Notes: a model not told the origin generated them from the letters alone. 10,205 nucleotides of DNA from a virus (IMGVR_UViG_2724679140_000003:1-10205); one strand, 5' to 3'; numbered from the stretch's first letter, positions 1,132-6,400 are shown. Translations and numbers: made by a program.

Positions 1132-1431
1132 TTATACCTCTGAATCAATATCAACCTGGTGATGAGCAATGGTTTCAACCATGTACCGGATGTGCTCCGC
1201 CACGCGTTCTTGAAATTCAACATCGTCATCAAATGCGCGACTGATTGCCTGTTTGCTGGCACCGTGGCGTTGCAAATGGTCGATGCAGAGCGATTCAAAC
1301 AGGTGCTGGGGCAGACCTTTTTCCAGGTCGTCCGCCAGCTCCGTTTCTTTTTCTTCGCGAACGATTTGCTGGTAGTGGCGTGACCATGCCTGCTCTTCAA
1401 TGCGATCAAAAATTGGGCATGTACTCATCAT
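1132..1431 (-). CDS. gam: Gam-like RecBCD inhibitor (short GamS-type form, 99 aa)
   Basis: Translation [99 protein letters not shown] matches recalled lambda Gam closely from the GamS start onward. Sits directly upstream of bet on the same strand. GGGG-rich SD before the ATG. Confidence 0.9.
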
Positions 1432-3379
1432 CCGTCACCCCAAAATTTTCAAGTTTGTTTGCAATCATCATTGCAATACCCGGAATTAATGGCGCTGAGG
1501 CTATACCCGCAGGATTTGCACATAAACCGTAAACCGCTGCAATCACCACTTGTCTTTTCCAGTCGAGTTTTTCTAATGATGAAGCTGCTGCTTCGCCAGT
1601 TTCATCACTGCAATCGCGATGCGGATCGCTGCCATCGTTCTCCTTGTGCGGATGTTCAGCACCTTCCATTTCCTCCAGACCTTTTTCCTGATATTCATTC
1701 TGATTTTCTTCATTAAAGGTTTTCTGATACGTTGCGTCGCCCATCACCGCACCACAGTCAGGGCAGTTATCCCCGCCAGTCTGACCGCAGGCATTGCAGA
1801 CTATTTCCGGTTCCTGTTGCACTACTGGCTCAGGTTGTTTCGCATCCGGGCTGATTTTTTCCGTTTCTGGCTGGTTCTGGTACACAGAATCGCGAGTCTG
1901 GATCCCCTTAACCCATTTCGGATCGTTCGGGTCGCTAATTCCGTCAACAAATTCACCACGTGATGCAGCAAGCAATTTATCGGCATCGACAGGATTTTTT
2001 GATGGAATGTTTTTCCGGGCTTCATGGAGTTCTGCCCGCTTTTTCTGGTATTCCGCTTCAACAGGGTTTACCTGTGACTGAGCATCCAGCGGCTGCGTGT
2101 TCTGATGATGTTCAGCTGCATCCGGTTCCACTGTTTCAGCCGTTGCCTGTTCATGTGCCATTGCGCCAGATGGTTGCGGTTTTTCTTCATCATCCTGTTT
2201 TTCTTCTTCTGTTACACGCTGCGGCATCGGGGCAGAGGAGCGACCGCAGGCAATATCCACGATTTCCGGATCAGGGTTGGCATGATCGGTTTCAGTCAGT
2301 ACTTTGTTCAGATATTCAGTGACGTGCGCGGGGATGACCTCGATCCCAATTGGTGCTTCTTTTACGGACGCAACCACGATGGCGCGGGAATAATCCAGCC
2401 CGCCAGGCATGGTGATGAATTTGTCGCGGAAAACAGAAAAGGGCGGTTTATTTTCAGCGATAATTTCCTCAATGCGTTTAGCGTGTGCCGGATGAAGGTT
2501 ATAGATGTCCACGTCCATTGAACGGGCCAGTACGCCAGTGGCTACATCGCGCGCCAGTGACGTCAGATCGTGGACGAAACCTTTGCCGCGATCGGTGAGG
2601 TTCCCGCCGCCAGCATTAGCACCGGAAGCCGTGCGGGTGATACGTGAAACACGATTTCCTTTCATCCACTCTTTTGTCAGCAGACCGCGATCGGTGTAGT
2701 CAGTGCCCAGGTATGCTTCGAAAAAAGCAGTCATCAGCCCCAGGCTTGAATTGCCTGGATTAGGGAAAACTCTGTCAGTATCACGCACCAGTTTGTGGAG
2801 ATCGCGAATTTCCAGCGGATCGAGCAGGCTGGTTTTGTGGGAAACAGCCAGGGCAGTAACAGCTGGTAGTTCTTCAGCTCGTGCAATGTGTAATGCCTGG
2901 AGTTCGTCGCGTGAAACGTGCGTTACCGGTTTTTCGCTGCCGTGTTGAGCAAGCCAGCGAATGGGCAGCTCCTGACCGGAAATCGGGAGTAGCATATTCT
3001 CCTCAATCTCCGTCATGTCTTCGCCATTAACATTGGTATTGTCAGTGCTGGCTGGTTTGTCCTGCGCAGAGGATGAGGGCGCGATAAATACCATTGTGAT
3101 GCCATCTTCCCCGCCTTTTTCGTAACGGTTGCAGAATTCCGTATCAAATACGCCTTCTGGTGGAAGGTCATCAACAACGGGCAAATTGACGCGAACAGGT
3201 TTTTTAAAGTCATCTTCATCGTAGCCAGCATCGTCAATCGCAACAGCACCACGGGAGATGGCAATGGATAATTTTTTCGCTTCAGCCCAGTAGAAACCGC
3301 CTTTAATACCGAGACGTTTTCTTACTTTGTCATTTTTTGCTTCGTAATACAGTGAGTAAACTTGTTTATCGGTGCTCAT
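1406..3379 (-). CDS. Large hypothetical protein (657 aa): acidic low-complexity segments, CxxC-x7-CxxC zinc knuckle, hydrophobic C-terminal segment; function unknown
   Basis: Uninterrupted 1974-nt ORF. ATG at 3379..3377 preceded by TGAGG about 9 nt upstream. Zinc knuckle [16 protein letters not shown] at about residues 528-543. Hydrophobic stretch [30 protein letters not shown] near the C-terminus. The 3' end overlaps the gam start by 26 nt. No Walker A or other catalytic motif recognised by eye. Plus-strand ORFs across this span are antisense and spurious. Confidence 0.85.
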
Positions 3380-4126: not shown

Positions 4127-4681
4127 TTATTTTAAGGAAAGCAACTGCTCTACGGTCATATTTTTAATTGCGCTCCGGTTTACAAGAGTCCAGCCTTGTT
4201 TCTTCAGATAAAACTGGAAGGTATCCAGGGTGCAGACCATTGCGCCGTCAGGAACGGTTTCAGTGAATTTGATATTGCCGTGTTCGTCGAGACGGATAAC
4301 CAGGGTGCGTCCGTCCCCGTGAATCATTTTGTCGGGAGACGGGGCGTTATTCTGGCGCAGTTCTGCTTCCATGCGGTCGAACTCAGCAATGTATGCCTCT
4401 TTAAATGCAGCGGCTTTTTTGCCAGTGAAGCCCATCACCAGGAAAACGAAGCCGTTTTTGGTGATTTGGTACATGGGGCGTTTTTCGCCTTTGGCGTCGG
4501 TGTAGGTAACGGGCGTAAAATTGCGCTCGTTAAAATCTTCAGAGCATTCTAGCGTTTCAATTTTGCGCAGAACGTCCTTGTGCATTTTGCGGAAGAACTC
4601 TGCAACCGCAACAGACGTAGTGACAGCGCGACCATTTTCGATGGTTACGTCAGGGTGAGAAAGGGTAGGGATAGTAGCCAT
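4127..4681 (-). CDS. Rha-family phage regulatory protein (184 aa short form; an in-frame upstream start at 4978 would give 283 aa)
   Basis: N-terminal motif RAVTTSVAVAEFFRKMHKDVLRKIE resembles the conserved core of the phage Rha domain (recalled pattern ...VAE.FGKRHDNVLRDI). ATG at 4681..4679 has SD AAGAGG about 8 nt upstream and puts the motif at the usual N-terminal position. The longer in-frame ORF from 4978 contains an intrinsic terminator, so the short form is preferred. Confidence 0.75.
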   Translation of the reverse strand: MATIPTLSHPDVTIENGRAVTTSVAVAEFFRKMHKDVLRKIETLECSEDFNERNFTPVTYTDAKGEKRPMYQITKNGFVFLVMGFTGKKAAAFKEAYIAEFDRMEAELRQNNAPSPDKMIHGDGRTLVIRLDEHGNIKFTETVPDGAMVCTLDTFQFYLKKQGWTLVNRSAIKNMTVEQLLSLK

Positions 4682-4847
4682 AATGGCAGCCTCTTGGTTA
4701 AGTATTAATAACTCACCACCAAGGTTTTCCACGACCATAAGGGTGGTGAGACGTACAGGGGTGGAAATACCGGTCAACCAAGAATCCGGCCAGCCTTGCA
4801 GCTGCCCTGCACGCCCCACCATAATCTGAATGTGGCTGTGCTTGACG

Positions 4848-4873
4848 CATAAAAAAACCGCCTGAGCGCGGTT
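4848..4873 (-). terminator. Intrinsic terminator (minus strand)
   Basis: Minus-strand RNA reads AACCGC-GCUCAG-GCGGUU followed by UUUUUAUG: a 6-bp stem, 6-nt loop and 7-U tract counting the stem Us. Lies between the DicF-like element and the Rha-like gene start. Confidence 0.5.
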
Positions 4874-5146
4874 ATGCGCTTGATTGAATTCCGGGTTTCC
4901 ACGCCCGGCACCCGTTTTATGAGGTGCAGGTGCACTATAATTCCACCCGTTCTGGTTTTCAATAGCTACATTCAACATTTTCTCTACCTTTCATCACCGA
5001 AGTGAACTTTGTTGATGCGGTGCCTGGTGCCTCCAGGTGACGTTAACCAGTTAACAATTAACGCCGGATAATCCACCCATAACACTGATGCTTTTAACTG
5101 TTCCGCGTGCGCTTAGCCGCATTCACCGCATCACAAAATTCACTTT

Positions 5147-5215
5147 AAAAAGGGCGGACATCAGCCGAACTTCAAGAAAAAAACTGATGCCGCCAAGACT
5201 ACACACAGCAGTGTT
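5147..5215 (-). ncRNA. DicF-like small RNA with terminator hairpin (5' end uncertain)
   Basis: Minus strand reads ...CUGCUGUGUGUAGUCUUGGCGGCAUCAGUUUUUUUCUUGAAGUUCGGCUGAUGUCCGCCCUUUUU. Long hairpin GGCGGCAUCAG / CUGAUGUCCGCC (plus-strand 5153..5194) followed by a U-tract. The segment UUGGCGG(C)AUCAGUUUU and the CCGCCC-UUUUU 3' end match E. coli DicF as I recall it. Position after the repressor and tiny ORFs mirrors the Qin dicA-ydfABC-dicF layout. Confidence 0.45.
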
Positions 5216-5392
5216 GTTATTCACAACCGGAGGCGCACTCCCACCATTTAAATTTAACAGACAAGACCGACTCTTTATGGATACCGGAAATGCGCCTTCG
5301 TGTTGTGCCCGGTTTTATTTCACCACCTCCGGGCTTTGGTGGCCTCGGCTATACCCCTACAGCAAGAATATTGAATTAATCCAATAAATGGT

Positions 5393-5545
5393 TTAGCTGG
5401 TATTTTTGGCAAGCCAGCGACGTGCGCCAGCTTCGGTTTTAAACGATTTGCTTTTGGTATACGTCATGGCGGTGAACGTTCCATCCTGGTTGGGGAACAC
5501 GCCACACACCAGGGATTCGTTGTTGCCGAGGTCGATTTTTTGCAT
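5393..5545 (-). CDS. Small hypothetical protein (50 aa), YdaF/YdfA-like position in the operon
   Basis: ATG at 5545..5543 preceded by SD GAGGG. Translation MQKIDLGNNESLVCGVFPNQDGTFTAMTYTKSKSFKTEAGARRWLAKNTS. Length and position resemble the tiny genes following racR or dicA in Rac and Qin; sequence identity not verified. The ORF-track version (87 aa from 5656) runs through the upstream gene in another frame. Confidence 0.6.
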   Translation of the reverse strand: MQKIDLGNNESLVCGVFPNQDGTFTAMTYTKSKSFKTEAGARRWLAKNTS

Positions 5546-5556
5546 TTTGGGAACCC

Positions 5557-5691
5557 TCACATCTTGTTGTTGCGGATAGAGGCTTCTGCCTGCCAGAGAT
5601 CCCAGTCGTTGCTGCGTAGAGCCTGTACAGCTTGGCTGTAAGTGATGCCGCAACAATCCATCAAATACTGAACTACTTCGTAATGCACCAT
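5557..5691 (-). CDS. Small hypothetical protein (44 aa), YdaG/YdfB-like position; not in the supplied ORF track
   Basis: ATG at 5691..5689 preceded by strong SD (AAAGGGAGAGAUAAA then AUG). Translation MVHYEVVQYLMDCCGITYSQAVQALRSNDWDLWQAEASIRNNKM. Stop TGA at 5559..5557 overlaps the SD of the next gene, suggesting translational coupling. Confidence 0.6.
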   Translation of the reverse strand: MVHYEVVQYLMDCCGITYSQAVQALRSNDWDLWQAEASIRNNKM

Positions 5692-5938: not shown

Positions 5939-6400
5939 CTACTGGTTACGTTTCTTTAGTGCCAGCATGTTCTCGAAGGCTTCCTCGTAGAGCTTGTTTA
6001 GTCCACGTAGCTGGTTAAGGAGTTTGGCTTTTTCTGACGCAGGTAGAATCTCGAAGAGGTTAAGTAACTCAGCCTGTTCTTCATTGACCAGCCTCCATCC
6101 TTTGCCTGAAAAGCTATCATCATAAGTATCTGATGATCTTACATAATTCATTAAGTCTTTAAGGTCTTCTCGAATGTCCTCTGGTTTTACCTTTAACAGA
6201 GCCGCAAATTTTAGCGCAGCGTCGGTATTTACCGGTATCTTGCCGTTCAGATACTGGCTAACGGTGCCTTGAGATTCGAATCCCAACAACTCAGCCGCCA
6301 GCTCTTGAGTCAGCTTCAGCTCTTTTTTTCTTGCATTCCATGCGGCTTTTAAATTCTTGCTCGCTTCTGGAGTTGCAATCACTTCGCGTGTTTTTTTCAT
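5939..6400 (-). CDS. DicA/RacR-type prophage repressor (XRE-family HTH, 153 aa, no S24 peptidase domain)
   Basis: HTH segment LTQELAAELLGFESQGTVSQYLNGKIPVNTDAALKFAALLKV. C-terminal segment EEQAELLNLFEILPASEKAKLLNQLRGLNKLYEEAFENMLALKKRN resembles the recalled DicA C-terminus. Divergent from a Cro-like gene. Weak or absent SD. Confidence 0.85.
   Translation of the reverse strand: MKKTREVIATPEASKNLKAAWNARKKELKLTQELAAELLGFESQGTVSQYLNGKIPVNTDAALKFAALLKVKPEDIREDLKDLMNYVRSSDTYDDSFSGKGWRLVNEEQAELLNLFEILPASEKAKLLNQLRGLNKLYEEAFENMLALKKRNQ

Follow-up and report, generated by a model that had tools for sequence, protein, structure and literature searches.

The window analyzed here is a 10,205-nucleotide (nt) stretch of viral DNA (IMGVR_UViG_2724679140_000003:1-10205), and the element in question is a small RNA (sRNA) gene on its minus strand, which a preliminary description had flagged at 5147-5215 as DicF-like with a different 5' seed. 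A BLAST search of the region against complete Escherichia coli genomes led to Rac-type prophages, adjoining ydaF, and the homologous place in E. coli K-12 MG1655 is annotated as the noncoding RNA kilS (b4833, NC_000913.3 1418502..1418405, minus strand), between sieB and kilR. In an ungapped pairwise alignment the RNA of the window and K-12 KilS are identical at 94 of 98 positions. Judged by this alignment, the flagged feature is KilS, a named sRNA of Rac-type prophages; because it had already been named, the feature is not new as a discovery. The reverse complement of 5215..5147 reads ACACUGCUGUGUGUAGUCUUGGCGGCAUCAGUUUUUUUCUUGAAGUUCGGCUGAUGUCCGCCCUUUUUA, and the full RNA (5244..5147, minus strand; 98 nt) reads, 5' to 3', GUGGGAGUGCGCCUCCGGUUGUGAAUAACAACACUGCUGUGUGUAGUCUUGGCGGCAUCAGUUUUUUUCUUGAAGUUCGGCUGAUGUCCGCCCUUUUU. 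The flagged interval therefore had the 3' end right and the 5' limit wrong: by identity with K-12 KilS the RNA starts at 5244, and 5215 is internal. The RNA and the elements around it are the following.

5147..5244, minus strand: KilS orthologue from transcription start to U5 tail, its ends taken from the 94/98 identity with K-12 KilS b4833.
5251..5259, minus strand: putative extended -10 promoter element TGTTAAATT for a start at 5244, with TG at -15/-14 and TAAATT at -12..-7, read from the sequence.
5195..5244, minus strand: 5' domain (nt 1-50), a predicted imperfect stem-loop that pairs the seed in the full-length RNA, in both the minimum free energy (MFE) and the centroid structures.
5212..5213, minus strand: putative RNase E site, homologous to K-12 KilS nt 32/33 and to the RprA processing site (AAC/ACUG here versus GAC/AUUG, the slash marking the cut).
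5197..5209, minus strand: seed GCUGUGUGUAGUC (nt 36-48), inside a 16-nt block UGCUGUGUGUAGUCUU (nt 35-50) that is identical to RprA nt 61-76.
5153..5194, minus strand: terminator hairpin (nt 51-92), with stems homologous to those of the DicF hairpin and a different loop, from the DicF covariance model alignment, the alignment with Rac and Qin described below, and the predicted fold.
5147..5151, minus strand: U5 tail and 3' end of the RNA; the K-12 3' end, 1418405, is the fifth U.
5008..5140, minus strand: conserved STnc100-like leader after the terminator, with hairpin CACCUGGAGGCACCAGGCACC, about 90% identical to the kilR (Rac) and dicB (Qin) leaders.

That this locus gives a discrete transcript is borne out in K-12, where KilS was predicted from RIL-seq data and verified by a Northern signal that depends on Hfq (Bar et al. 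2021, PMC8175672). The same study places the K-12 start at 1418502 and an internal RNase E site at 1418471, which is KilS nt 32 (Suppl. Table 6). The two alleles share the promoter region, the terminator, the downstream leader and the upstream racR-ydaG-ydaF synteny, and they differ by four substitutions (nt 23, 30, 34 and 49), all in the 5' half. Upstream of the KilS start, 40 nt are identical between the window and K-12, whose start was mapped at the homologous G, and the extended -10 element at 5251..5259 is probably the promoter of KilS. Promoter region and terminator of the window allele are thus sequence-identical to those of the K-12 locus, for which alone expression has been shown. As for the traits of Hfq-class sRNAs, a seed and a Rho-independent terminator are present in this allele, and Hfq dependence and chimeras have been published for the K-12 allele only. 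The 98-nt RNA has a predicted MFE of -35.4 kcal/mol (z = -3.2 against shuffles), with a long, G+C-rich hairpin predicted at nt 51-92 (arms GGCGGCAUCAG...CUGAUGUCCGCC, then U5) and a U tail of only 5 nt. The mean unpaired probability of the seed is 0.23 in the full-length RNA and 0.48 without nt 1-31, that is, in the nt 32-98 fragment.

KilS is common. A KilS-specific query of 101 nt, covering the promoter and the 5' half, was found in 1769 of 5426 complete E. coli genomes, usually in single copy, and KilS is carried by about a third of complete E. coli genomes. Among the genome matches listed, RefSeq annotates KilS in K-12 MG1655 only, and no annotated feature lay under the query match in any of 12 listed genomes.

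The preliminary description had recognized DicF in the terminator hairpin and its flanks, and this likeness holds. With permissive thresholds in a 501-nt search, the Rfam DicF model (RF00039) matches 5207..5152 on the minus strand end to end, at 42.6 bits and E = 4.7e-8. The gathering score of this model is 48, and canonical DicF reached 76.7 bits in the same set-up; by score KilS does not belong to the Rfam DicF family. The match was missing from a scan at gathering thresholds because 42.6 bits lie below 48, and at those thresholds Rfam gave no family for KilS in the window or in K-12. The local alignment score between KilS and DicF was reached by none of 5000 shuffles, and the resemblance is real, not chance.

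An alignment of the window with K-12 Rac, K-12 Qin and phage Tritos places the boundary of this homology. Upstream of UGGCGG, which is the 5' arm and lies at the hairpin base, identity between the KilS and dicF loci is at chance level; from UGGCGG onward it is about 90%, and it stays so over some 180 nt of leader, as far as the start codons of kilR and dicB. Within the hairpin the stems are kept (UGGCGGyAUCAGUUUU...CCGCCCUUUUU in both RNAs) and the loops differ, with UUUUACUCCGUGACUGCUCUG in DicF and UUUUUUUCUUGAAGUUCGGCUGAUGU in the window RNA. The seed GCUGUGUGUAGUC is unrelated to the DicF 5' end UUUCUGGUGACGUU, in place of which KilS has ...ACUGCUGUGUGUAGUC. An altered 5' region had been proposed, and in the alignment to Qin dicF the two are indeed unrelated, so the 5' region is not identical to that of canonical DicF. 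As aligned, KilS is a mosaic of a terminator stem and leader common with Qin dicF-dicB and a Rac-specific 5' half. With the shared 5' arm TGGCGGYATCAGTTTT as the query, viral contigs gave at least 124 matches. With a handful of hairpin-less chance matches set aside, only two 5' classes occur among the matches listed, the DicF class (at least about 95) and the KilS class (at least 24).

The position of the gene is likewise that of DicF. The genes that precede KilS are listed here; the matching genome named in the entries differs from the window at 371 of 10,205 positions and is identical to it in the KilS region.

5939..6400, minus strand: RacR/DicA-type helix-turn-helix (HTH) repressor gene at the head of the leftward early region (Pfam HTH_3; racR synteny).
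5557..5691, minus strand: ydaG-like open reading frame (ORF) of 44 amino acids (aa), where the matching genome has an annotated hypothetical protein and K-12 has ydaG at the same position.
5393..5545, minus strand: ydaF/ydfA-like DUF1391 ORF (Pfam DUF1391, E = 7e-29; called ydaF by PGAP in the matching genome).

Their order mirrors Qin, as the preliminary description had said: an HTH repressor, two tiny ORFs, of which the second is a DUF1391 ORF like YdfA, and then the RNA. DicF, in the dicB operon of Qin, and KilS thus have in common their homologous terminator stems, a place in a dicB-type operon that follows a repressor and a DUF1391 ORF and precedes a division-inhibitor gene, and, once processed, a short architecture of 5' seed plus terminator. 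Unlike DicF, KilS has a promoter to itself and a stem-loop domain at the 5' end; its 5' seed and hairpin loop are unrelated to those of DicF, and it has no predicted ftsZ pairing. These differences bear on the idea that KilS is a functional DicF paralogue that blocks division by pairing with ftsZ mRNA, which we regard as barely tenable. The covariance match of 42.6 bits would fit it, and so would the shared operon position, which in K-12 is followed by a gene for an FtsZ inhibitor. Yet the score is below the gathering threshold and far from the 76.7 bits of canonical DicF, and KilS has other sequences in place of the DicF 5' end and of the hairpin loop, the latter of which joins the predicted full-length DicF duplex with the ftsZ start. 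The best duplexes of KilS with ftsZ reach -22 to -25 kcal/mol with no coherent helix at the ribosome-binding site, against -38.5 kcal/mol for DicF, and no site around ftsZ translation initiation rises above background (p = 0.7-0.9 of background in a scan of -200..+60). What stands of the paralogue proposal is the homology of stems and leader; membership in the DicF family, by score and by loop, does not.

The 5' half finds its counterpart elsewhere, in the core-genome sRNA RprA. In a permissive Rfam scan the RprA model (RF00034) scored 25.6 bits, against a gathering score of 70 and 118.5 bits for RprA itself, and KilS is not a member of that family. The model alignment is, however, a perfect match over UGCUGUGUGUAGUCUU, and the 16-nt identity was confirmed by pairwise alignment to E. 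coli RprA. KilS therefore carries, by its terminator, the conserved RprA 3' seed AUUGCUGUGUGUAGUCUU, with 16 of 16 positions in this allele (UGCUGUGUGUAGUCUU) and 16 of 16 in K-12 (AUUGCUGUGUGUAGUC). In the K-12 allele the likeness covers 25 identical positions and one 1-nt gap over 26 columns (AAAUAACGACAUUGCUGUGUGUAGUC against AAACAACGA-AUUGCUGUGUGUAGUC). The score of the RprA alignment was reached by none of 5000 shuffles, and the number of shared 16-mers expected by chance is 1.8e-6. On this identity, the KilS seed is the same sequence as the conserved RprA 3' seed, the csgD anti-site Ib. In 24 KilS-type copies (six alleles) retrieved via the hairpin, the 13-mer seed is invariant and six flanking positions vary.

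The start of the shared block coincides with a processing site. It corresponds to RprA nt 60-61, where RprA60-105, the form that results from RNase E processing (the "last 47 nt", starting AUUGCUG), has its 5' end, and the processed segment is the most conserved part of RprA (PMC9262595; PMC3465796). The published RNase E site of K-12 KilS (nt 32, ...AACGAC/AUUGCUG) lies at the homologous position, and in both RNAs the 16-nt block stands directly 5' of the terminator. The processed forms are also alike in predicted fold and seed accessibility: by folding, the seed of the nt 32-98 fragment is as accessible as that of RprA60-106 (0.48 versus 0.52), behind a similar small 5' hairpin. Beyond the shared block we found no similarity. 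KilS is without the RprA 5' hairpin, the nt 28-58 seed region (csgD site II, hdeD and rpoS pairing), within it the nt 28-45 seed (csgD site II, hdeD), and anti-site Ia, and its terminator is different. RprA is encoded in the core genome, at ydiK-ydiL, and KilS in a prophage, and nothing points to control of KilS by Rcs or Cpx.

The shared block has a practical side. The published KilS Northern probe 2 (AGGACTACACACAGCAATGTCGTTATTTAC) has 16 contiguous nt in common with RprA, which is of similar size (106 versus 98 nt), and short RIL-seq read ends over the block could be misassigned between the two RNAs. Published probe 1, against the hairpin, is specific; a hairpin-specific probe sequence for KilS is GCGGACATCAGCCGAACTTCAAG.

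For RprA, the function of this seed has been established. Site I of the csgD 5' untranslated region (UTR) (-119..-84) is bound by RprA nt 60-97, compensatory mutations have proven the pairing of csgD CAGC (-90..-87) with RprA GCUG, and overproduction of RprA60-105 alone is enough for csgD to be down-regulated (Mika et al. 2012, PMC3465796). To predict targets of KilS, we compared seed fragments with the -200..+60 regions of RprA partners from RIL-seq and TRIC-seq (list: bioRxiv 10.1101/2025.09.11.675593), against a background of 1778 K-12 windows; full-length duplex prediction against long targets gave meaninglessly long duplexes and was discarded. The predicted sites are the following.

csgD, from 5198..5213, minus strand: CACUGCUGUGUGUAGU (KilS nt 32-47) forms 16 contiguous Watson-Crick pairs with csgD -98..-83, over RprA site Ib; p = 0.001.
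ymgC, site at -50: 15 base pairs (bp), including one G-U; p = 0.002-0.003 of background.
yncL, site at -37: 10 bp, not exceptional against background.

Compared with the background windows, the sites in csgD and ymgC fall within the top 0.1-0.3%, and the RprA-specific upstream seed (nt 31-58) has no match at the csgD, ymgC or yncL sites. At csgD, K-12 KilS and RprA each form 13 Watson-Crick pairs (16 and 15, respectively, when G-U is counted); the window allele reaches 16 rather than 13 Watson-Crick pairs because of its U34C substitution. Both yncL and ymgC are RprA partners in RIL-seq as well as TRIC-seq (bioRxiv 10.1101/2025.09.11.675593), and yncL is the KilS RIL-seq partner singled out in the discussion table of Bar et al. 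(PMC8175672). RprA and KilS thus have a common partner in yncL and common predicted sites in csgD and ymgC. Different targets had been suggested as possible for the altered seed, and the predicted sites are in csgD, ymgC and yncL, with none above background in ftsZ; the seed itself is a copy of the RprA 3' seed and not an arbitrary new one.

The same scan gave no shared-seed site clearly above background for ftsZ, narP, rpoE, fur, kgtP, ybeL or dgcM, and the sites in gltI and osmB were marginal against background. We rejected ftsA as a shared target: it is an RprA partner in RIL-seq and TRIC-seq, but its best site fits the RprA-specific 5' seed, and no convincing shared-seed site was present. 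No target was found within the window.

RprA also activates rpoS translation, and a phage sRNA that does so is known, StxS (PMC7547250); KilS might in this way be a mimic of full-length RprA, a reading we consider improbable. The K-12 allele keeps AACGA(C)AUUGCUGUGUGU, similar to the part of RprA by which that RNA binds the rpoS leader, and GUGUGU has a possible pairing partner in ACACGC, at -134..-129 of this leader. Against this, KilS has no RprA CCCCUG segment, and the window allele is also without the AACGAAUU helix. Its predicted leader duplex is weaker than that of RprA (-19.5 to -21.5 versus -32.3 kcal/mol), and the rpoS site does not exceed background (p = 0.1-0.7). StxS, which arises from early termination at tR' in Stx phages, is nonetheless a useful comparison: both are prophage sRNAs whose transcription terminates ahead of a gene with a lytic function, RNase E processes both, and each relies on a pairing that is also employed by a core sRNA (PMC7547250). 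They part in that StxS pairs with and activates the rpoS leader, whereas KilS has the csgD-binding seed of RprA and weak predicted rpoS pairing.

We therefore favor, as the probable reading, that KilS is a Rac-type prophage sRNA that combines a DicF-type terminator and leader with an RprA seed and works as an Hfq-dependent mimic of processed RprA, acting mainly on csgD. Transcription of KilS would run leftward, from a promoter of its own and probably in addition as part of the early-left transcript under repressor control, and would end at the DicF-type intrinsic terminator, upstream of the conserved leader that precedes kilR in K-12. In the full-length RNA the seed would be paired with the 5' end. 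Cleavage by RNase E near nt 32, as mapped in K-12, would then yield an RNA of about 67 nt with the seed at its 5' end, the architecture of processed RprA (RprA60-105) and of DicF, and processing would activate KilS by freeing the seed. With Hfq, the seed would pair with RprA targets, chiefly csgD 5' UTR site Ib and also ymgC and yncL, so that the prophage would lower expression of the curli and biofilm regulator; ftsZ is not a predicted target. We infer repression of csgD or other RprA targets in vivo, by KilS generally and by the window allele in particular.

Several points weigh against this reading. No experiment links KilS to csgD, and csgD is poorly expressed under the conditions of the RIL-seq libraries. 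The duplex predictions were made without accessibility and for a handful of candidate mRNAs rather than the whole genome, and the invariance of the seed within KilS alleles is of modest significance only, about 0.02 for a prespecified block. RNase E favors the motif RN/WUU; in this allele U34C loses the U at +2 of that motif, and processing may differ. KilS has one of the three csgD sites only, being without anti-sites Ia and II, and in RprA the loss of two of the three csgD sites abolishes translational repression (PMC3465796); a single csgD site may be insufficient. Among the few RIL-seq partners of KilS only yncL was highlighted, with no link to csgD reported, and KilS is weakly expressed, with few chimeras and 30 ug of RNA per Northern lane (PMC8175672). 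The KilS-yncL chimeras could in part be cross-mapped RprA reads, with 16-24 nt in common.

Weak expression and few RIL-seq partners would also suit an explanation in cis, in which the hairpin serves only as a terminator or attenuator of the early-left operon that prevents expression of kilR (in the window, of the isrK-C4-antirepressor module) in lysogens, with the short RNA as a by-product that has no role in trans. KilS lies within the 5' UTR of kilR in K-12, terminator and leader are the conserved part common to the Rac and Qin loci, and silencing of kilR depends on termination and is relieved by loss of NusG (review PMC13501541). We nevertheless think this explanation unlikely on its own: it leaves the 16-nt identity with RprA and the 16-bp complementarity with csgD unexplained. 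In addition, the single-stranded 13-mer is invariant while its flanks vary, many phages have the seed right before a terminator, on scaffolds that are unrelated, and KilS accumulates in an Hfq-dependent manner and forms Hfq-bound chimeras. Cis and trans roles are not mutually exclusive, and the KilS terminator very likely also limits read-through into the leader, which is compatible with a role in trans.

Another possibility, to which we give very little weight, is that KilS modulates the RprA regulon by competition, occupying Hfq or RprA target sites without regulatory outcome, or titrating an anti-RprA sponge. An RprA-identical seed would bind the same partners, and processed RprA has an unexplained indirect effect on narP, perhaps via another RNA according to the authors (PMC9262595). 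There is, however, no candidate sponge, the abundance of KilS is low, and the idea is pure conjecture.

The seed module is not confined to KilS. Many viral contigs contain the 14-mer UGCUGUGUGUAGUC, with upstream sequences that are unrelated and hairpins that vary, and a terminator-like hairpin with a U run begins within 8 nt after it in 76 of 91 distinct matches, compared with 25 of 300 random positions. Together with YTGGCGG it is present across Enterobacterales, among them Escherichia, Shigella, Citrobacter, Enterobacter, Klebsiella, Raoultella, Serratia, Erwinia, Mixta, Buttiauxella and other genera. The 14-mer sets were retrieved by the seed itself, and seed invariance in them holds by construction; two retrievals, one based on the hairpin and one on the leader, were independent of the seed. 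In the leader-based set the seed follows the leader in 30 of 195 copies.

That leader recalls another group of prophage RNAs, STnc100 and the related PasD sRNAs. The interval 5140..5008 matches Rfam STnc100 (RF02076) partially, over model positions 22-154, at 42.1 bits, where the gathering score is 47. A different prophage type of E. coli/Shigella has the same leader, there followed by the RprA-like seed and then a terminator, and in it the whole model scores 43.1 bits (again less than 47); the 3' end of the STnc100 consensus is without an RprA-like seed. The order of modules therefore differs, being seed, terminator, leader in Rac and leader, seed, terminator in the STnc100-like prophage type. 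A 2026 preprint on the Pas/STnc100 prophage sRNAs does not mention KilS, DicF or RprA. The leader hairpin CACCNGGAGGCACCNGGCACC is widespread in viral contigs (about 195 matches), where it precedes kilR, dicB or short seed-plus-terminator modules, and this spread suggests a conserved cis-acting function of the leader.

We would propose, more tentatively than the reading of KilS itself, that KilS and a wider set of Enterobacterales prophage sRNAs carry the processed-RprA seed on varied scaffolds (a DicF-type terminator, an STnc100-type leader or other hairpins). By this means prophages would plug into the host RprA regulon and repress csgD, ymgC and yncL, with the window allele tuned to better csgD complementarity than RprA.

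Two further observations came from the seed matches. Several Enterobacterales other than Escherichia have, after the RprA-like seed, a long hairpin with GGAGG...GAAGAUAAUGUUCU inside it, that is, with a Shine-Dalgarno sequence and an AUG. The ORF would run through the 3' arm and the U tract (MF..GTALFTQ..), and its product may be a small protein, the start of which would be masked by the terminator. Sequences of exact KilS type, or related to it, were also present in assemblies labelled Chryseobacterium, Donghicola and Candidatus Nanosynbacter, most likely through enterobacterial contamination or mis-binning.

The surroundings of KilS in the window are those of a Rac-type immunity and early-left region. 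The gene lies downstream of racR-ydaG-ydaF and upstream of a kilR-type leader, with kilR itself absent. Homologues of ydaS, ydaT, ydaU and ydaV are on the opposite strand, and ydaE, RecE, Gam, Bet and Exo follow further left. Two differences from K-12 Rac stand out. Upstream, sieB is absent, and ydaF and KilS are about 150 nt apart (5245..5392, minus strand), where K-12 Rac has sieB between them on the opposite strand. Downstream, an isrK-C4-Rha/antirepressor module occupies the place of kilR. In the scan of the window at Rfam gathering thresholds, only C4 (4826..4739, 76.7 bits) and isrK (4927..4851, 69.2 bits) were called, both on the KilS strand and just downstream of it. Both isrK, which has a promoter-like site (4962..4934) and a terminator to itself, and the C4 antisense RNA lie within a 283-aa ORF at 4978..4127 on the minus strand. 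PGAP calls this ORF a Rha family protein; the Pfam Ash-family match covers residues 14-109, over both RNAs, and the Rha domain residues 120-204 only. The N-terminal third of the annotated Rha protein may therefore be RNA genes and not coding sequence. The prophage of the matching genome also has a RecE-family exonuclease beside homologues of Gam, Bet and lambda Exo, and hence two recombination systems (compare 1406..3379, minus strand, and leftward in the window).

KilS itself was already known; as far as we can tell, its reading as a DicF scaffold with an RprA seed and the csgD prediction are unreported. Among open-access papers and preprints, we found none that links KilS to DicF or RprA, and the only open-access paper found that names KilS (Bar et al. 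2021, PMC8175672) mentions neither. Three points are absent from the searchable literature: the sharp junction of homology with the dicF locus at the hairpin base, the identity of the seed with RprA nt 61-76, and the 16 csgD pairs versus 13 for RprA.

Probes and short reads over the seed can confuse KilS with RprA, and this calls for caution in work on either RNA. For KilS, which has had no known function so far, these results provide a testable hypothesis, prophage control of curli and biofilm by mimicry of a core sRNA, and the csgD::gfp fusions and site Ib compensatory mutants that bear on it already exist (Mika et al. 2012). The locus is also an example of how the sRNAs of lambdoid prophages evolve, with seed modules swapped on conserved terminator and leader scaffolds, and its interest would rise if repression of csgD were confirmed and the broader seed-swapping family held.

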